In this document: positions 7,465-14,000 of the stretch, in pieces
Position numbering within the stretch: position 1 is the stretch's first letter
Layout: every line of letters begins with the position of its first letter
NCBI GenBank assembly: GCA_034436115.1
Contig: DAOTVY010000039.1
Span: 1 to 22,443, forward strand
Origin: Chloroflexia bacterium
GTDB taxonomy: Bacteria; Chloroflexota; Chloroflexia; DTKN01
Direction of reading: 5' to 3'
Length of the DNA stretch: 22,443 nucleotides
Notes under the pieces: model-generated
Seen by the model: only the letters and a program-made list of their open reading frames with translations
Databases searched by the model: none
Told to the model about the DNA's origin: nothing
Position numbers and translations under genes: made by a program

Positions 7465-10400
7465 CTAGAGCTCGCGCCGGATCAGGACGAGCGTCAGGTC
7501 ATCGAAGGGAGGCTGACCCTCCCCGAACTCCTTCAACGCTTCCAGGACCGCGGCCTGGACGTCGGGGAGGGCATCGGCGCGGCGATCGGTCACGATGCGG
7601 GTCAGCCGCTCCAGGCCGAACTCTTCCTCGTGCCGGTTGATCGTCTCCGTAACCCCGTCCGTATAAAGCACCAGGGTATCTCCCGGCCGCAGTTCCACGA
7701 CCCGCTCTTCCAGACGCGCGTCCGGAATGACCCCCAGAATCACCCCGGGTGCTTGCAACAGGGCAGTTTCCCCATCCGCGCGCACCAGCAGCGCAGGGTT
7801 ATGCCCCGCACTCGCATACCGCATCTCGCCCGCCTGGGGATCGAGGACACCGTAAAAGACCGAGACGAACATCTCCGCCTGGGAGTCCTCCAAAAGGAGG
7901 CGGTTCACGTGGCCGAGGGCTTCGGCAGGGGAAGCGTGGTTGACCGCGCTGGCGCGCACCAGGCTTCGCGACAGCACCATGAAAAGCGCCGCCGGCACCC
8001 CCTTGTCGGAAACATCCGCTACCACAATTCCCAGCCGTCCATCGGGCAGCGGGACGAAATCGTAAAAATCCCCGCCGACCGCCCGTGCTGCTTCCCAGGC
8101 CGCTCCGATGGACCAGCCGGGGATCTGGGGGCAGCATTCGGGAAGGAGACGACGCTGGATCTCGCGGGCCACTGCCAGTTCCTGCTCCAGCCGTTGGCGG
8201 ACCTCCGCCTCTTGCCGCAAGCGCGCCTCCTGGATGGCGATCCCAGCTTGGTGGGCCAGGCCGGAGAGGATCGTCTGCTGTTTTCCGCTCAGAGGAGTGC
8301 CTCCTGCACCCAGGCCGAGGAGGAGCACGCTGCAAACCTCCCCGCCGGCGACCAGAGGATACAGCCATCCACTCCCGCCGGGCAAAAGCCCCGAGACCGC
8401 GACGGGCATTCCTTCCACGTCTGGCTCTGCCACCAGAGCCAGCGGCGTGGCACCTTGGACCACCCGCGCCAGGGCCGGTATCACCCGGGAATCCAACACC
8501 TGGCCTTCGAGCGCCTTCCATCCCGCTCCGTAGCCGTGAGCCACGCGGAACACGCCACTTTCCCTTTCGCGCAAGAGAAGGACGCACGGTTCCGCGCCGA
8601 TGAGCAGCGGCACCAGCCGCACGACGGTCTCCAGCGTTTCGCTCAGGTCTCGGGCGCGGGCGATGTTCTGTGCGACCTGCAGAAGCGCGTTTAGCACCCA
8701 GGCTTCCTCCTGCTCGGCCCGGTAGAGACGGGCATTTTCAAGCGCTACCGCAATCTGGTCCGCGAGCGTGCGCAGGATAAAGAGATCTTCGTCATCGAAG
8801 GCGTCCACCTCATCGCTCTGGACATCGAGGACGCCGACCACGTCGTTTCCAACCTTCAGGGGAACGGCGACCTCGGAACGCACATCCTTCTGGTCCGGCA
8901 GCCACCTGGGGTCCTGGCAGACATCGCCCACGATCGTGGCCTCCCCGTGCCGTGCGACCCAGCCAACAAGCCCTTCCTCCAGGGAGAGCCGGCCTTGCCG
9001 GGCTTCCCAGAAGGGGTTTTCCGGGTCGGTGCTGGCGCGGAAGATCACCTCTTCCCGCTCCGCATCGACCGTGAAGATATGGGCGTGGGAATACCCAAAG
9101 CGAGAGCGCACCAGCCGCACGACCTGGTTCAGCAGGGCATCCAGGTCGAGGATCGAAAGGATGCTGCGCATGACCTCGGCGATCGTTTGCAGCTGTACCG
9201 CGCGCCGACGCTGGGCTTCGTACTGGCGGGCCGCCTCCAGGGCGACCGCGGCCTGGTCCGCCAGCGCCAACAGCAGGGTGAGGTCGGCCTGGGCGAAAAA
9301 CCCGGGCTGCGGATGGGTGAGCGTGATCGCGCCCCAAGGGGTATCTCCGTGCAGGATGGGAACAGCAACCGCAGACCCTACGGCCTGTGCGCCGGGGAGC
9401 CAGCGCGGGTCTTTCCGGACGTCTGGGAGCAACGCGGCCTGCCGGTTGTGGATCACCCAACCCGCCAGCCCGCGCTCCAGGATCAGCCCCAGATCGGTCT
9501 GGGGTCCCTCTTGGGTGGAGATCGCGCGCGGGGTCTCCCGGCGGGTGCCCAGCAGCAAGATGACCCCGTCGGCTGCTTTCAGGCTTTCCAAGGCGCGTTG
9601 AAGCAACCGCTGGAGGAGGTCATCCAGGTCCAGCCGGCGTGTCAGGTCGCGGGTAACGTCCTGGAGGAGGCGCAGCCGGTCGCGCTCCTCGCGCACCGCG
9701 GCATAGAGGCGTGCGTTCTCGGCCGCGATGCGCTCCAGTTCGGCCGCCCGCTCGCGCGCTGCCTGGTACAGGCGGGCTTTCTCGATCGCTAGCGCCGCCT
9801 GGTCGGCGATGAAGGACAGGATGCGCAGGTGTTGTTCATCGAAGGCGGCCGGCCGTCGACTCTGGATCGAGATCGAGCCAATCGCTTCACCGGACGCCAG
9901 GAGCGGCACGAACACCCCGGAGCGCGGAGGATCGGGGTCCAGGTAAAGGGGGCGCGCCGGCAGCCGGTCCATTTCTCGGACAAAGTCGCGCACCAGCAGG
10001 GGCTGCTTGCTCTCCCGCATCCAGCCCACGATCCCCTTGCCCCGGGGGACCGTGACTGTGAGCGGAGGCTGACGTACACCGTCGCGGACGCGAATGGCCA
10101 GGGTGAAAAGGTCCCCTTCGAAGAATCCCAGGTGGAAAAAGGAGGTGTCCACGATGTGGCTCGCCTGCTGGTAGACCAGTTCTGCCAGGGCCTCGACGCT
10201 CATCTCGGCGTGCGCGACCGCGCGACCGATCTCGTTGAGCACCATAAGCTCGCGGACATTGTGCTGCTGTTGCAGGGTGATGCGCACGAGCCGCTGGATG
10301 ACCAGGCTGGTCGCGATCAGGCCGGCCGACATCAGGAGGAAGGCGCCCGGGCTCCCGCTCGCGTAGAGGAACGCGACCAGCACAGATAAGGGAAGCGGTG

Positions 10401-11025
10401 CGAGCTCGATCAAAAGGGAGGGCACGATCACCGCGTGCAGCCAGTCGCGGACACGCTTCCAGCCGCCCAGGATCGCTTCGGCAATGCCCCAACCCAGGTG
10501 GTCCATCAGGAACCAGGTCACGAGCAGGAGGAGAGTTGGTCCGGCCAGGGAAAGGTCGATCCTGTAGAGGGGGGCAGGACCGCCAACCCGTTGGTAGAGC
10601 GTTCCGCTCACAAGCGCCATCCAGCCTTTTAGCCCGCTGTCGAACGCGAGGTTCCCGACTAGCACCGGCCCGGCCAGCTCGGATCCCTCGCGCCGGGCTC
10701 GGACGCCTTCGACCAACCCTCGTTCGATTTGATACAGGAACGCACCCGCAGCCGCGACCCAGGCACCTCCAACTGGGCCAAACAACAGGATGGCTGCCAG
10801 GTCCACGATACCTACCAGGCTATGCGTCTCGCGTGGGACGACGCGGCTCCCGAGCCCCTTCATGAGGAGAGAGAGGAGGACAAAGAGGGGCCAGGCACGG
10901 TGGAAGAACACGGGCGGCACGTTCAGCCGCCACCGGAAGAGTATGGCCCACGCCGCGAAGCACACGAGGATACTCAGGGCTACGAAGGCCTCACGACGGC
11001 CCCTGGGAGGATTCCCCCGGACCAC
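7465..11025 (-). CDS. Membrane-anchored multi-GAF (about 4 GAF domains) PP2C/SpoIIE-type serine phosphatase, RsbU/RsbP-like, 1186 aa
   Basis: The N-terminal roughly 230 aa is hydrophobic, with about 6 TM segments. Four repeated GAF-like blocks each end in an ..ADQAAvALEnARLY.. helix. The C-terminal PPM/SpoIIE domain reads GGDFYDFVPLPDGRLGIVVADVSDKG ... YTDGVTE. The start is GTG at 11025 (SD GGAG 7 nt upstream) and overlaps the upstream gene by 35 nt. The exact start is uncertain. Confidence 0.88.
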   Translation of the reverse strand: MVRGNPPRGRREAFVALSILVCFAAWAILFRWRLNVPPVFFHRAWPLFVLLSLLMKGLGSRVVPRETHSLVGIVDLAAILLFGPVGGAWVAAAGAFLYQIERGLVEGVRARREGSELAGPVLVGNLAFDSGLKGWMALVSGTLYQRVGGPAPLYRIDLSLAGPTLLLLVTWFLMDHLGWGIAEAILGGWKRVRDWLHAVIVPSLLIELAPLPLSVLVAFLYASGSPGAFLLMSAGLIATSLVIQRLVRITLQQQHNVRELMVLNEIGRAVAHAEMSVEALAELVYQQASHIVDTSFFHLGFFEGDLFTLAIRVRDGVRQPPLTVTVPRGKGIVGWMRESKQPLLVRDFVREMDRLPARPLYLDPDPPRSGVFVPLLASGEAIGSISIQSRRPAAFDEQHLRILSFIADQAALAIEKARLYQAARERAAELERIAAENARLYAAVREERDRLRLLQDVTRDLTRRLDLDDLLQRLLQRALESLKAADGVILLLGTRRETPRAISTQEGPQTDLGLILERGLAGWVIHNRQAALLPDVRKDPRWLPGAQAVGSAVAVPILHGDTPWGAITLTHPQPGFFAQADLTLLLALADQAAVALEAARQYEAQRRRAVQLQTIAEVMRSILSILDLDALLNQVVRLVRSRFGYSHAHIFTVDAEREEVIFRASTDPENPFWEARQGRLSLEEGLVGWVARHGEATIVGDVCQDPRWLPDQKDVRSEVAVPLKVGNDVVGVLDVQSDEVDAFDDEDLFILRTLADQIAVALENARLYRAEQEEAWVLNALLQVAQNIARARDLSETLETVVRLVPLLIGAEPCVLLLRERESGVFRVAHGYGAGWKALEGQVLDSRVIPALARVVQGATPLALVAEPDVEGMPVAVSGLLPGGSGWLYPLVAGGEVCSVLLLGLGAGGTPLSGKQQTILSGLAHQAGIAIQEARLRQEAEVRQRLEQELAVAREIQRRLLPECCPQIPGWSIGAAWEAARAVGGDFYDFVPLPDGRLGIVVADVSDKGVPAALFMVLSRSLVRASAVNHASPAEALGHVNRLLLEDSQAEMFVSVFYGVLDPQAGEMRYASAGHNPALLVRADGETALLQAPGVILGVIPDARLEERVVELRPGDTLVLYTDGVTETINRHEEEFGLERLTRIVTDRRADALPDVQAAVLEALKEFGEGQPPFDDLTLVLIRREL

Positions 11026-11773
11026 TTTCTTGCTCCAGGGCTCGTAGTGCCGCTTCTCGCGTGTCGAAGGATGGGAAGATTTCCGAAAAACCCGTGATCC
11101 GCAGTACGCGCGCGACGTTCGGCTGCGCGCAGCAGAGGACGACCTGTCCCCCTCGTTCCCGCAGTTCCTTGGCGATCACCAAGAGCACGCGCAAGCCTCC
11201 GCTGCTCAGGTAGGTTACTTGGGCCAGGTCGACCACGAGATGTCGCTGGCCCAGGTCCAACGGCTGCCGGAGCAGGCGCTCCAGCTCCGGGGCGCGGGTC
11301 GCATCCAGCCGGCCGGCCGGAGCAAGCACGGATACGCCGGCCGGACCTCCCGCCACCCGCGTGCCGTAGCGCACCAGGGTGAGGACGTTTTCCTCTCCCT
11401 CCACCGTGAACTCGACCCGGTCCATCAGGCGGCGCATGAGGTAGATCCCCAGCCCTCCCTCCTGTCGCTCCTCGAGGGGTGCCTCGAGGTCGGGTTCCGG
11501 CACCAACGAGGGATCGAACCGCCGCCCGCGGTCGCGCAGCTGCACGAAAAAATCGGAGCCTTCCCGCCAGCAGAGCACCTGGAATGTGCCCTCCAACCCG
11601 GCCTCCTGGTATCCGTGGACGATGATGTTGGTCGCAGCCTCGTCGACCGCCATCTGGATGGCAAAGAGGTCGCCTTCCTGCACCCCGAGCTTCCGTGCAC
11701 ACTCCGAGACGAACTCGGAGAGGATGCTCAGCTGGTCCAAACGCGCCGGGAAACTTCGCTCCGATTTCCGCAT
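10991..11773 (-). CDS. Fusion protein: RsbW/SpoIIAB-like GHKL serine kinase (anti-sigma type) fused to a C-terminal STAS anti-sigma-factor-antagonist domain
   Basis: The N-terminal half has the E...N..VHG N-box, a DRGRRFD G1-like box and GGLGIYLMRRLMD G2 box. The C-terminal half has the STAS block VVDLAQVTYLSSGGLRVLL...VLRITGF, which includes the phosphorylatable Ser. ATG at 11773. The longer ORF-track start at 11863 lies inside the predicted promoter. Confidence 0.8.
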   Translation of the reverse strand: MRKSERSFPARLDQLSILSEFVSECARKLGVQEGDLFAIQMAVDEAATNIIVHGYQEAGLEGTFQVLCWREGSDFFVQLRDRGRRFDPSLVPEPDLEAPLEERQEGGLGIYLMRRLMDRVEFTVEGEENVLTLVRYGTRVAGGPAGVSVLAPAGRLDATRAPELERLLRQPLDLGQRHLVVDLAQVTYLSSGGLRVLLVIAKELRERGGQVVLCCAQPNVARVLRITGFSEIFPSFDTREAALRALEQESGPGESSQGPS

Positions 11774-11853
11774 GGCTTCGCTCTTACTGCCCCAATCGTC
11801 CCGTGCCCGTAACGGCGGGACGAACCTTCTTCGAACAATGGGCACTCGTGGTG

Positions 11854-11882
11854 ATGATAGCATAGCCCCCCGCTATTGACAA
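11854..11882 (-). promoter_or_regulatory. Sigma70-like promoter (minus strand) for the kinase-STAS/phosphatase operon: TTGTCA, 17-nt spacer, TGc, TATCAT
   Basis: The minus-strand read is TTGTCAatagcggggggctaTGcTATCAT. The -10 is the complement of 11854-11859 and the -35 the complement of 11877-11882. It lies about 80 nt upstream of the ATG at 11773. Confidence 0.4.
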
Positions 11883-11903
11883 GCCGCACGGCCATGGTAA
11901 ACT
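11876..11903 (+). promoter_or_regulatory. Sigma70-like promoter (plus strand) for the SPFH gene: TTGACA, 16-nt spacer, TGg, TAAACT
   Basis: TTGACA at 11876-11881 and TAAACT at 11898-11903, with a TGn extended element. The -35 hexamer overlaps the minus-strand -35 by 5 nt (core ctaTTGACAAg). It lies about 43 nt upstream of the ATG at 11946. Confidence 0.35.
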
Positions 11904-11945
11904 GTGGTGCGGGATCCCGAAAGTAGCGAAAAGGCAGGATGTACC

Positions 11946-13436
11946 ATGAGTGACGGGGACACCTCTGCGGGAGGGGCGGCCGGCCGGTCCAGAAGTTTCG
12001 GTTGTCTTTTGGCTGCCGGGCGTGTGCTTCTCATCCTGGTGGGATTGATCCTCGCCGTGCTCGCACTGTGGAAAGGTGGGTGGTATGCCCTGATCGCCTG
12101 GCTGCTCACCCTCGTGCTGCTCATCGACACCTCAGTGAACGTCTTCTACAGCGTGTACGAGGAAACCGGCTCGCGCCGGTGGGGCTGGTTGCTATGGATC
12201 GCGGCCTTCCTGTTGGGGTTTCCGGGGGCCCAGCGCATCACATCGGAGGGGAAGCTGGTTCCGACCAAGCCACCCGGGCCTCTCGGACGGCTGTTCGCCC
12301 GCTTCGGTGTCTCAAGGGAGCTGGTCATCGAGGGAGGCTGGGCGGCGGTGCTGGAACGACGTGGGCAGTTCACGCGCGTCTGCGGCCCCGGGCGCTACAC
12401 GCTGCAGCGCTTTGAAGAAGTCGCCCACGTCATCGACCTGCGGCCGCAGGTGCGCACGGTCGAGGTGAAAGGGGTACGGACGGCGGACGGCCTGACGTTC
12501 GACGTCGAATTGGACGCTCGTTTCCGGATCTCCGCAACGGATCCGCCCGGGGCGGGTGGTGGGACAGGGGCTGCCGGGACGATATCCCAAACCGCCCCCT
12601 CCGGTTCGGGCGCGGACGGCTCGGGCACAACAACGGCTCCGCCCGGGGCGGGTGGTGGGACAGGGACCGCAGGGACAACATCCAAGGTTGCACCCTCCGG
12701 TTCTGGCGCCGACGGTTCACAGACAACGGGAGTCCCAACAGCTACCCCTACCTACCCGTTTTCAGCGACTGCGATCCAGACCCTCGTGTACAACGGGGGA
12801 ATCCTGTACCAGAAGGAAGGGCAAGGATCGGGCAACCAGCTGGGCACCGGGGACAGGAGCGAAGGCCGGTTCGAGGATTGGCGGGACACGGTCGTCCGTG
12901 TTGTCCAGCAGGCGGTGCGTGACGTAGCCGCAGGAGTCCGGCTGGAGCAGATCCTTTCACTGCAGGACAGTCTGCCAAGCGCGCCCTCAGGTGTTCCTAC
13001 TTCCCAAAGATTCCCGGAACAACTGCCACAACCGGGTCGAGCGTGGCTCGGAACAGCGGTGTTTGGCAAGGCAAAGAGCCAACTCGAAAAACTGGGCGTG
13101 GAACTTCTCGGCATCGACCTGCAAGGCTTTGTGGTTCCCCCAGAGGTCCAGGATTTCTTCCTCAAATCGCTGCGCAGGCAGATCGATATCGAGTGGGCAA
13201 GGGCGCAAGAAGAAGCGATCCACCGCATCGCGGAGGGGCTGCAGAAGGCTCTCGGAACGATCCGGCAGGCAACGGAAGACACTCTGCCAGAAATCCGCCC
13301 CCACCTGCTGGTGACCCTGACCGACTTGTTGCAGCGCATTTCGCAGGACTTCTTGCGGTTGACCGCGCCCTACCGGACGATCGCCCAAATGCCCCCCAAA
13401 GCCCAGGGGCCTGCCACGCCTGAGGGAAAGGAATGA
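11946..13436 (+). CDS. SPFH/band-7 (stomatin/flotillin-like) membrane protein with an internal Gly/Thr/Ser-rich tandem-repeat insertion
   Basis: Two to three N-terminal TM helices (LLILVGLILAVLAL.., ALIAWLLTLVLLI.., WLLWIAAFLLGF). The SPFH-like core reads LVIEGGWAAVLERRGQFTRVCGPGRYTLQRFEEVAHVIDLRPQ..TADGLTFDVELDARFRI. The C-terminus is helical. ATG at 11946 with the SD AAAAGGCAGGA. The ORF-track GTG at 11904 falls inside the predicted 5' UTR. Confidence 0.8.
   Translation: MSDGDTSAGGAAGRSRSFGCLLAAGRVLLILVGLILAVLALWKGGWYALIAWLLTLVLLIDTSVNVFYSVYEETGSRRWGWLLWIAAFLLGFPGAQRITSEGKLVPTKPPGPLGRLFARFGVSRELVIEGGWAAVLERRGQFTRVCGPGRYTLQRFEEVAHVIDLRPQVRTVEVKGVRTADGLTFDVELDARFRISATDPPGAGGGTGAAGTISQTAPSGSGADGSGTTTAPPGAGGGTGTAGTTSKVAPSGSGADGSQTTGVPTATPTYPFSATAIQTLVYNGGILYQKEGQGSGNQLGTGDRSEGRFEDWRDTVVRVVQQAVRDVAAGVRLEQILSLQDSLPSAPSGVPTSQRFPEQLPQPGRAWLGTAVFGKAKSQLEKLGVELLGIDLQGFVVPPEVQDFFLKSLRRQIDIEWARAQEEAIHRIAEGLQKALGTIRQATEDTLPEIRPHLLVTLTDLLQRISQDFLRLTAPYRTIAQMPPKAQGPATPEGKE
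12543..12734 (+). repeat. Imperfect tandem duplication, 2 x 96 bp (about 78% identical), in frame inside the SPFH gene
   Basis: Copy 1 is 12543-12638 and copy 2 is 12639-12734. Both begin with the identical 27-mer ccgcccggggcgggtggtgggacaggg. They encode PPGAGGGTGAAGTISQTAPSGSGADGSGTTTA and PPGAGGGTGTAGTTSKVAPSGSGADGSQTTGV. Confidence 0.85.
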
Positions 13437-13517
13437 CCAGGGGAGTCGTCCTGCGAACTATGGAAACGGGCCTGTTCCTTCCAAGCCGAGGTCTGGTTTC
13501 CCGAAAGCGCGCCCGCC

Positions 13518-14000
13518 TCAGCCTTCGCACGGATCGGTGGGCGCTTCTTTCCAGTGGCGCTTTTTCCGGGCCAGAGGTGGCGGGAGTTGGATCGGGCTGC
13601 CCAGGCTGGCCAACAGGCCCTGACAGATATCGGCAAAACCGCGCAAGTATGCTTCCCGGCGCGCCTTCGGCAAGGACGGGGGAGACGAAAGCGTCGAGGC
13701 GTAGAGTGAGGTAATCAGGTTCTCCAGGTCTTCCAGGAGCCAGAGTTGGGTGATGACGCCGTGTGGCTTCTGCGTGCTCTGCGTCGGGGAGGGAATCCCC
13801 GCGAGTTCAGGGGAAAACCCCAGGGCGACGAGGATGCACTGCGTGGCCACGGTGCAGCCACTGGCGTATGCCCTGGCCGCTTCCTCGGGCGGTGGCCCGA
13901 CGCCGTCGCCTGTGGCCGGCCCGAAGGGAGCCAGTTTGGCTCCGAGCAAGGCGGCCAACAGGTTCTTCACGTCGTCCCGGCTCCAGCTGCGCGATGGCAC
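13518..14000 (-). CDS. Hypothetical protein (about 161 aa) with a predicted GTG start; the longer 13518..14417 ORF is rejected
   Basis: GTG at 14000 with the SD AAGAGGG 5 nt upstream. A minus-strand promoter at 14036-14064 places the TSS near 14029, which excludes the longer N-terminal extension. That extension is Arg-rich and lies antisense to a better ORF. The product (..DVKNLLAALLGAKLAPFG...WLLEDLENLITSLY..) is not recognised. Confidence 0.35.
   Translation of the reverse strand: MPSRSWSRDDVKNLLAALLGAKLAPFGPATGDGVGPPPEEAARAYASGCTVATQCILVALGFSPELAGIPSPTQSTQKPHGVITQLWLLEDLENLITSLYASTLSSPPSLPKARREAYLRGFADICQGLLASLGSPIQLPPPLARKKRHWKEAPTDPCEG

Follow-up and report, generated by a model that had tools for sequence, protein, structure and literature searches.

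The model we propose concerns a two-gene signalling operon on the minus strand of contig DAOTVY010000039.1 from a Chloroflexia bacterium, analysed over positions 1 to 22,443 (hereafter the window, 22,443 nucleotides in length), in which the gene of a kinase-STAS fusion protein is followed by the gene of a large sensor phosphatase. We read it as a partner-switching operon that would run the canonical cycle and act on a sigma factor whose gene lies elsewhere in the genome, a model to which, taken as a whole, we give about an even chance of being right. A preliminary description of the window had put forward the core of this reading, a partner-switching module made of a fused RsbW-like kinase and STAS antagonist and of a membrane-bound PPM phosphatase with four GAF domains, and the domains, the motifs, the predicted fold and the gene pairing all agree with it.

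Partner switching is a main bacterial control of alternative sigma factors and, increasingly, of other targets: phosphatases of the RsbU type dephosphorylate STAS proteins, and RsbW kinases phosphorylate them and sequester the sigma factor. To our knowledge, almost everything that is understood of its mechanism comes from Firmicutes, Actinobacteria and a few Proteobacteria. The Chloroflexota carry a conserved family of modules in which the kinase and its antagonist are often one protein, which would make of them a 1:1, single-molecule switch. The compact two-gene form lends itself to the study of the competition between a tethered antagonist and a target, of phosphorylation in cis or in trans and of what the receptors resembling the S components of transporters sense.

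The input of the proposed cycle would be received by the sensor phosphatase, in which an S-component-fold membrane domain, four GAF domains, a presumed helical linker and the PPM catalytic domain follow one another, and which in its activating state would dephosphorylate Ser191 in the STAS domain. The unphosphorylated STAS domain would then occupy the kinase domain, and the phosphorylated STAS domain would let go of it, leaving the kinase domain free to hold an alternative partner. This partner would most likely be a sigma factor encoded elsewhere, as for Rv1364c and SigF or Slr1861 and SigC, so that activation of the phosphatase would release the sigma factor and turn on its regulon. The reset would be achieved by the fused RsbW-like kinase, which would re-phosphorylate Ser191 with ATP, within the chain or across a dimer, at a kinase to antagonist ratio that the fusion fixes at 1:1. 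Of this cycle, the enzymatic steps, how the partners bind, whether the geometry is cis or trans, the signal and the identity of the output are inferred.

The operon and its promoter

In the window, whose G+C content is 61-68%, the minus strand between 7465 and 11863 is occupied by two long open reading frames (ORFs), 10991..11863 and 7465..11025. The gene of the fusion protein (10991..11773, minus strand) is one continuous frame, delimited from the ORF and the Pfam matches, and both of its domains are found in its homologues. Its ATG at 11773 gives a product of 260 amino acids (aa), and this start is preferred because the length matches that of the homologues (254-261 aa) and because it lies downstream of the promoter, the ATG at 11863 being inside the promoter. 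The gene of the sensor phosphatase (7465..11025, minus strand, from the ORF and the Pfam matches) starts with a GTG and encodes 1186 aa. The overlap of 35 nucleotides (nt) that had been described between the end of the first gene and the start of the second is that given by the ORF coordinates (10991..11025, minus strand), and a GGAG stands 7 nt ahead of the GTG start at 11025.

For comparison, the domains of the window were mapped onto a survey of 83 related loci, to which a further locus, L084, was later added. A JGI metagenome protein is 100% identical to the phosphatase, and the closest other relatives are metagenome-assembled genomes (MAGs) of uncultured Chloroflexia, L084 being the closest MAG relative. 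The fusion and phosphatase genes overlap in these relatives too, by 23 nt in L001 and by 17 nt in L084, and the 35-nt overlap in the window suggests translational coupling.

The fusion gene had been said to be transcribed from its own promoter, and a sigma-70-like site is indeed found upstream of the operon (11854..11882, minus strand), composed of TTGTCA, a 17-nt spacer and TG-n-TATCAT. With its upstream TG present, it scores 10 matches out of 12, for 0.4 sites per region in shuffled sequence. Furthermore, its -35 (CTTG.C) and extended -10 (TGCTAT.AT) elements are invariant in the window, L084, L001 and L004, members of the same clade, the remainder of the spacer having diverged.

A second promoter-like site, TTGACA-16-TAAACT (11876-11903, plus strand), faces a divergently transcribed SPFH/Band-7 gene. 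Its -35 overlaps that of the operon on the opposite strand through the palindromic TTGACAA/TTGTCAA, and four members of the window's clade have its -10 (minus-strand reading ACAGTTTAC) unchanged. The likely start of the SPFH gene is the ATG at 11943 rather than the GTG at 11904. The SPFH gene and the fusion operon may be co-regulated or in competition.

The kinase-STAS fusion protein

The N-terminal half of the fusion protein is matched by the Pfam model HATPase_c_2 (PF13581; E=5.7e-29, 101.1 bits for a cut-off of 27.4), and the predicted GHKL Ser kinase domain of the RsbW/SpoIIAB type covers residues 8-134 (11372..11752, minus strand). The C-terminal half is matched by the STAS model (PF01740; E=1.4e-22, 79.9 bits for a cut-off of 22.6), the anti-sigma-factor-antagonist domain covering residues 145-242 (11048..11341, minus strand). 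TIGR00377, the superfamily model named "anti-sigma factor antagonist", is reached with 80.8 bits for a cut-off of 53.45 and is the sole NCBIfam model passed; NCBI names the homologues of the fusion protein "anti-sigma factor antagonist".

The kinase motifs and the phosphorylatable Ser that the preliminary description had read in the translation hold up when 85 fused homologues, 30-87% identical, are aligned. The N-box is DEAATN (residues 44-49; E45 and N49 invariant), the G1 box LRDRG (residues 79-83; D81 invariant) and the G2 box EGGLG (residues 105-109; G106, G107 and G109 invariant). In the STAS domain, the motif YLSSGGL (residues 188-194) contains the predicted phospho-acceptor Ser191 (codon at 11201..11203, minus strand), invariant in the same alignment, which shares its column with Ser58 of Bacillus subtilis SpoIIAA and Ser56 of RsbV. 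Ser58 is the phosphorylated residue of SpoIIAA. The acceptor Ser is kept in all 46 fused STAS domains aligning at that column and in 64 of the 64 free STAS proteins of the related loci.

The comparison with solved structures leads in the same direction. By sequence, the kinase half is closest to RsbW (6m36_A, E=4.9e-8) and SpoIIAB (1th8_A, E=6.7e-5), with whose ATP-binding motifs its own align, and the STAS half is closest to SpoIIAA (1th8_B, E=1.4e-10). The AlphaFold2 model of the fusion protein has a predicted local distance difference test score (pLDDT) of 92.4 and a predicted template-modelling score (pTM) of 0.66. When this model is searched with Foldseek, the top matches are the SpoIIAB and RsbW chains 1th8_A, 1tid_A, 1l0o_A and 6m37_A (E ~1e-9, target-normalised TM-score 0.7-0.9), followed, for the C-terminal half, by SpoIIAA and RsbV chains. 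The Pfam match far above its cut-off, the invariant motifs and the SpoIIAB/RsbW fold thus place the N-terminal half among the GHKL kinases.

The sensor phosphatase

The C-terminal part of the second protein had been assigned to the SpoIIE/PP2C phosphatases. The Pfam model SpoIIE (PF07228) matches residues 994-1184 with E=5.1e-54 and 183.6 bits for a cut-off of 25, and the PPM Ser phosphatase domain extends over 7468..8100 (minus strand). The four motifs of the domain are GGDFYD (residues 984-989), ADVSDKG (1003-1009), YTDGVTE (1121-1127) and FDDLTLV (1174-1180). All the Asp residues of these motifs, on which metal binding would depend, are present, and D986, D989, D1004, D1123, D1175 and D1176 are each at least 90% conserved among 51 homologues. 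The nearest solved sequence is RssB of Pseudomonas aeruginosa (3es2_A, 5.8e-19), followed by a "putative serine phosphatase" (6k4e_A, 1.4e-14) and Rv1364c (3ke6_A, 1.6e-14), SpoIIE being matched as well. Full-length homologues of the phosphatase reach 80% identity.

The second motif of the domain carries an additional Asp, at residue 1007, in its DVSDKG. RssB reads ADVSGHG at the aligned position, and the usual form of this motif is DVSGKG or DVSGHG. With at least 90% conservation in the 51 homologues, the extra Asp is characteristic of the family rather than erroneous.

Between the membrane and the catalytic domain, each of the three Pfam GAF models (PF01590, PF13185 and PF13492) finds four stretches (GAF, E=1.8e-62), in agreement with the four GAF-like repeats counted previously. 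The four units cross-match one another in tblastn and their bounds were set by conserved end motifs: GAF1, approximately residues 263-423 (9757..10239), GAF2, residues 447-605 (9211..9687), GAF3, residues 611-767 (8725..9195), and GAF4, residues 777-941 (8203..8697), all on the minus strand, GAF1 and GAF4 resting on the Pfam matches, the tblastn cross-matches and the motif positions. GAF3 contains the best Pfam GAF stretch (residues 626-763) and resembles, below the cut-offs of NCBIfam, the GAF domains of NifA and PtsP. It is the unit most similar to GAF2 (36% identity over 174 aa, E=2e-22, tblastn), and the phosphatases of the sister clades match GAF1, GAF3 and GAF4 only. GAF2 is therefore a recent tandem duplicate of GAF3, specific to the window's clade. 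The preliminary description had taken the four GAF domains and a membrane anchor to integrate several inputs. Because GAF2 duplicates GAF3 within the clade and the sister clades have three such domains, the four GAF domains need not be four independent inputs, and the membrane part is a candidate for more than a mere anchor, as set out below.

GAF4 and the PPM domain are joined by a linker of approximately residues 942-975, QEAEVRQRLEQELAVAREIQRRLLP (8101..8202, minus strand), whose bounds come from the motif positions. It is taken to be helical, by analogy, and to stand in the place of the coiled-coil linker that has been proposed as the signal transmitter in RsbU, RsbZ and OsaC (PMC12143880).

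The membrane domain

Residues 1-262 of the phosphatase (10240..11025, minus strand) form an N-terminal integral-membrane domain. The previous count of about six transmembrane helices was roughly right, with seven hydrophobic segments in the sequence and eight helices in the AlphaFold2 model (pLDDT 91.9, pTM 0.89). From the similarity of this model to solved S components, the domain is predicted to have the fold of the S component of energy-coupling factor (ECF) transporters; Foldseek by itself gave nothing significant.

The domain belongs to a very small family. It has no Pfam match at E<=10, PF07694 (5TMR-LYT) included, and no NCBIfam match, and among 51 homologues a single one gives a weak match to PF12822 (ECF_trnsprt, E=0.012) and none matches PF07694. 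A word-indexed search with the membrane domain alone returned no match, hydrophobic words probably swamping the candidates, and it was replaced by an exhaustive HMMER search of 1.84 billion representatives, in which just 79 proteins (cluster representatives) carry the domain. The 51 long ones combine it with GAF (50/51), SpoIIE (39/51), HisKA and HATPase_c (4/51) or GGDEF (2/51), and this variety of partners makes of it an input module common to several signalling outputs. Its helices contain the conserved polar residues K56, H68, S69, D75, Y98, K133, D175, H176, W179 and E207. In view of the S-component fold of its model, the membrane domain is a candidate for a ligand-binding input.

Receptors resembling S components, the 5TMR-LYT domains (PF07694), are known to be fused to cytoplasmic signalling domains including GAF and PPM (Partipilo and Slotboom 2024, PMC11109136), and 5TMR-PPM fusions are reported there mainly from archaea (PMC11109136). 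The phosphatase of the window likewise joins an S-component-fold membrane domain to GAF and PPM domains; unlike the 5TMR-LYT receptors, it matches neither PF07694 nor any other Pfam model. It is a sequence-distinct addition to the picture of the S-component receptors, the concept itself not being new.

Conservation and layout in the Chloroflexota

The kinase, STAS and phosphatase gene set is conserved across the Chloroflexota: the three adjoin in most of the 83 loci and their layout alone varies. The Anaerolineales have a free STAS gene, an unfused kinase and a GAFxN-PPM phosphatase (layout A). The Chloroflexales and others (Herpetosiphon, Kouleothrix, Oscillochloris, Chloroflexus, Roseiflexus) combine a free STAS gene with a kinase-STAS fusion and a phosphatase of the form (membrane domain)-GAFx3-PPM (layout B). 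The window's clade (L001, L002, L004, L005 and L084) has the fusion and a membrane-GAFx4-PPM phosphatase with no free STAS gene (layout C), and in more distant relatives, partly outside the Chloroflexota, the kinase is followed by a separate STAS ORF (layout D). Of the 83 loci, 46 have the fusion as a single ORF, and over 80 protein clusters (30-87% identity) contain it too.

Other joinings of the same parts occur. In L041 (2015-4453), a MAG labelled Eubacteriales, a GAF-SpoIIE-HATPase_c_2 fusion is followed by a separate STAS gene, and in L083 (8906-12643), from the Anaerolineae, HATPase_c_2, four GAF domains and SpoIIE lie in one frame. The latter order, kinase-GAF-PPM, is the one that we take OsaC to have. 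As a single case, the L083 fusion could be due to a lost stop codon or to a sequencing error. That the kinase, STAS and phosphatase parts have been fused repeatedly and independently, as also in L041 and L083, argues that they act on each other. A four-gene version exists in L031, L034, L042 and L052, where an extra unfused kinase gene lies between the fusion and phosphatase genes and a free STAS gene lies upstream (~10-12 kb in L042).

The output of the switch

The preliminary description had noted that no sigma factor gene lies within 10 kb of the module. The flanks of the module within the window measure 7.5 kb and 10.7 kb, and over them neither Pfam nor tblastn finds one. A sigma factor encoded elsewhere is nevertheless favoured as the output, on the precedents of Rv1364c with SigF and of Slr1861/Ssr1600 with SigC.

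Several observations weigh against this choice. No sizeable ORF of the window has a sigma-factor Pfam match, and tblastn with SigF, RpoE and RpoD seeds (E<=1) gives a single chance-level match of 32 residues to SigF (E=0.94), inside sucD. Within 10 kb on either side of the module in the 83 loci, there are no SigF-, RpoD- or RpoE-like matches save one of the extracytoplasmic-function (ECF) type in L018 and in L020, ~5 kb downstream of the module; the missing linked sigma gene is thus a trait of the family and not an accident of the window. Nor does the neighbourhood offer another output partner: when the ORFs of at least 90 aa around the module were clustered over 84 loci, only the module genes, shadow ORFs and clade-local synteny recurred. 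In the literature, some RsbW homologues phosphorylate STAS proteins without binding a sigma factor, such as RsbW2 of Mycobacterium smegmatis (PMC10950880), and partner switches with non-sigma outputs exist (SypA, BtrV, RbaV; PMC8256260). A search on partner switching in Chloroflexi found nothing relevant and no paper on this module family, and the sigma-factor review consulted makes no mention of Chloroflexi.

The kinase half itself misses the NCBIfam equivalog models used (NF003144, TIGR01924 and TIGR01925), with 52 bits for a cut-off of 145 (RsbW), 43.2 for 155 and 37.7 for 135 (SpoIIAB), and the equivalog cut-offs for SpoIIAA and SpoIIE are likewise not reached by the module proteins. The kinase half is therefore not orthologous to any proven anti-sigma factor, and its sequence does not tell whether it binds a sigma factor. 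As judged from sequence, the fusion protein is a member of the RsbW/SpoIIAB-type kinase family without being an RsbW or SpoIIAB orthologue.

To these points is added the relative position of the two domains of the fusion, which are each confident in the monomer model (pLDDT 92) and weakly placed with respect to one another (pTM 0.66). It had been stated that the fusion implies phosphorylation in cis, which by itself it does not. RsbW and SpoIIAB work as dimers, and the linker between the kinase and STAS domains is of ~11 residues in the AlphaFold2 secondary structure; with such a linker, a dimeric family and a pTM of 0.66, phosphorylation within the chain and across a dimer are both possible. 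The AlphaFold2 monomer was considered as an arbiter between cis and trans docking and set aside, a pTM of 0.66 not being decisive.

Alternative readings

The same phosphorylation cycle could act on something other than a sigma factor, be it an enzyme, a regulator of transcription or a complex in the membrane; we regard this as the main rival reading and as less likely than the favoured one. Binding and regulation of the target would fall to the STAS domain when unphosphorylated or to the kinase domain once freed, or the kinase would phosphorylate further substrates. This reading is consistent with the missing linked sigma gene throughout the family, the ECF-like match in L018 and L020 apart, with the missing conserved neighbour and with the scores of the kinase half below those of the RsbW and SpoIIAB equivalogs. 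It has precedents in SypE/SypA, BtrU/V/W and RbaV (PMC8256260). The HenR module of Anabaena, with its STAS-bearing glycosyltransferase, is another. However, every solved protein among the nearest to the kinase half is a genuine anti-sigma factor. Moreover, Rv1364c, the only kinase-STAS fusion known to have been characterised, binds a sigma factor whose gene is unlinked, so that an unlinked sigma gene also occurs in systems that act on sigma factors.

A more specific form of a non-sigma output, which we consider doubtful, would start from a receptor derived from a transporter: a metal ion or a metabolite akin to a vitamin would be the ligand of the S-component-fold domain and, together with the ligands of the GAF domains, would gate the kinase-STAS switch. 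If true, this would be a Chloroflexota-specific pathway linking a small molecule bound in the membrane directly to Ser phosphorylation.

In a rather improbable reading, the STAS domain of the fusion would serve the kinase as an internal regulator, by autoinhibition or as a pseudo-substrate, and signalling would pass through a separate single-domain STAS protein as the true substrate, encoded elsewhere in the present genome. Such a division is compatible with the free STAS gene found immediately upstream in 38 of the 46 fusion loci, with the acceptor Ser kept in all 38 of these free STAS proteins and with the second, unfused kinase of L031, L034, L042 and L052, which suggests a division of labour among paralogous parts. 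The fused STAS domain keeps an invariant acceptor Ser, however, as expected of a true substrate, the window contains no second STAS or kinase match (tblastn, E<=1), and the window's clade consistently lacks the upstream STAS gene in its five other members.

Finally, the fusion could be an artefact (a lost stop codon, an assembly or frameshift error, a decaying pseudogene) and the module non-functional, as was considered because distant relatives such as L045 and L049-L053 have the kinase and then the STAS domain in separate frames, but nothing was found in favour of this, and it is for practical purposes refuted by the conservation of the same single-ORF fusion, which recurs in 46 independent loci and over 80 protein clusters, by the invariance of all catalytic and acceptor residues and by the pLDDT of 92.4.

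Comparison with known systems

The partner-switching model can be set against several described systems. According to two secondary accounts, Rv1364c of Mycobacterium tuberculosis carries PAS, PPM, an RsbW-like kinase and STAS on one chain; its kinase phosphorylates its own STAS at Ser600, its own PPM reverses this, and it binds SigF, which is encoded elsewhere (PMC10950880, PMC9138534). The module shares with it the covalent joining of an RsbW-like kinase to a STAS domain and the presence of a PPM phosphatase in the same system. Unlike Rv1364c, the module has a fusion of two domains only, and its phosphatase is a protein apart, 1186 aa long, in which four GAF domains and a membrane domain take the place of the PAS. 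The two fusions probably arose independently, the kinase half being nearer to RsbW and SpoIIAB than to the kinase of Rv1364c: 3ke6 is absent among the sequence matches of the kinase half and comes at rank 45 by fold.

With the B. subtilis systems RsbU/RsbV/RsbW-SigB and SpoIIE/SpoIIAA/SpoIIAB-SigF, the module has in common a GHKL kinase, a STAS domain with its acceptor at the Ser58 position and a PPM phosphatase. It differs from them in that its kinase and antagonist are one polypeptide, in that its operon has no sigma gene and in the inputs of its phosphatase. GAF-PPM phosphatases that start a sigma-B response are RsbZ of Clostridioides difficile and OsaC of Streptomyces coelicolor (PMC12143880). 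These too have N-terminal GAF domains joined to PPM; they have two GAF domains, or one and a PAS, whereas the phosphatase of the module has four GAF domains and an S-component-fold membrane domain, its cognate kinase is fused to STAS and no sigma-B-like gene is linked to it.

In Synechocystis, Slr1861 (a kinase and anti-sigma factor) and Ssr1600 (a STAS protein) control the formation of the RNA polymerase-SigC holoenzyme (PMC12329169). The module resembles them in its anti-sigma-type kinase and STAS domain and, if the model holds, in a phosphorylation-dependent partner switching. Slr1861 and Ssr1600 are, unlike the parts of the module, separate proteins, of a cyanobacterium, and the homology is established no closer than at the family level. 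Presumably sigC lies at a locus apart from those of Slr1861 and Ssr1600. SypE/SypA of Vibrio fischeri and BtrU/V/W of Bordetella have a non-sigma or undefined target and no dedicated sigma gene (PMC8256260). Like them, the module is a kinase, phosphatase and STAS set without a dedicated sigma gene; unlike it, SypE fuses the kinase to the phosphatase, the input domains are different and the systems are not phylogenetically close.

The kinase-STAS fusion, the GAF-PPM phosphatases, the S-component-like receptors and the switches without a dedicated linked sigma gene are thus already known, and the proteins of the module are already auto-annotated in public MAGs. As each element has a described precedent, no concept is overturned. 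What is new is the particular combination, the conserved Chloroflexota family with its graded layouts and the unrecognised membrane domain.

Neighbouring genes

Beyond the operon, the window contains sucC (811-2016) and sucD (2692-3573), between which lies an unannotated ORF of 233 aa (2010-2711, plus strand) that overlaps each of them by a few bases. It has an HExxH motif and no Pfam or NCBIfam match, and an ORF of equal length occupies the same place in L084, a relative at 80% identity (9577-10278). A conserved gene of no assigned family within a succinyl-CoA synthetase operon is unusual. In L084, a gene for an ECF S component of the CbiM type and a gene for a Fur-family regulator lie beyond sucCD (12461-13932), ~8 kb from the module; the proximity of the CbiM-type gene, despite the S-component-like domain of the phosphatase, is probably coincidental. 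The equivalent stretch falls beyond the window.

Two thiolase-like genes in tandem (3984-6417, plus strand) and two ChsH2-type genes in tandem, with zinc ribbon and OB fold (6428-7410, plus strand), form a four-gene block (3984-7410) that is also present downstream of the module in L001 and L084. On the other side of the operon are the SPFH/Band-7 gene (11904-13436, plus strand), a methyltransferase gene (14883-15725, minus strand), the gene of a membrane protein of 1061 aa (15733-18918, minus strand) and uvrA (19386-22259). The SPFH/Band-7 gene was considered as a functional partner of the module and rejected, its conservation in the window's own clade only being plain synteny. The ChsH2, thiolase and 1061-aa neighbours, common to this clade only, are likewise ordinary synteny.

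In the 1061-aa protein, which matches no Pfam or NCBIfam model, numerous membrane helices at the N-terminus are followed by a large C-terminal part. Its counterparts in L001, L002 and L005 are 41-58% identical to it. The AT skew of the region of its gene, at 17-19 kb, is marked (0.24-0.27).

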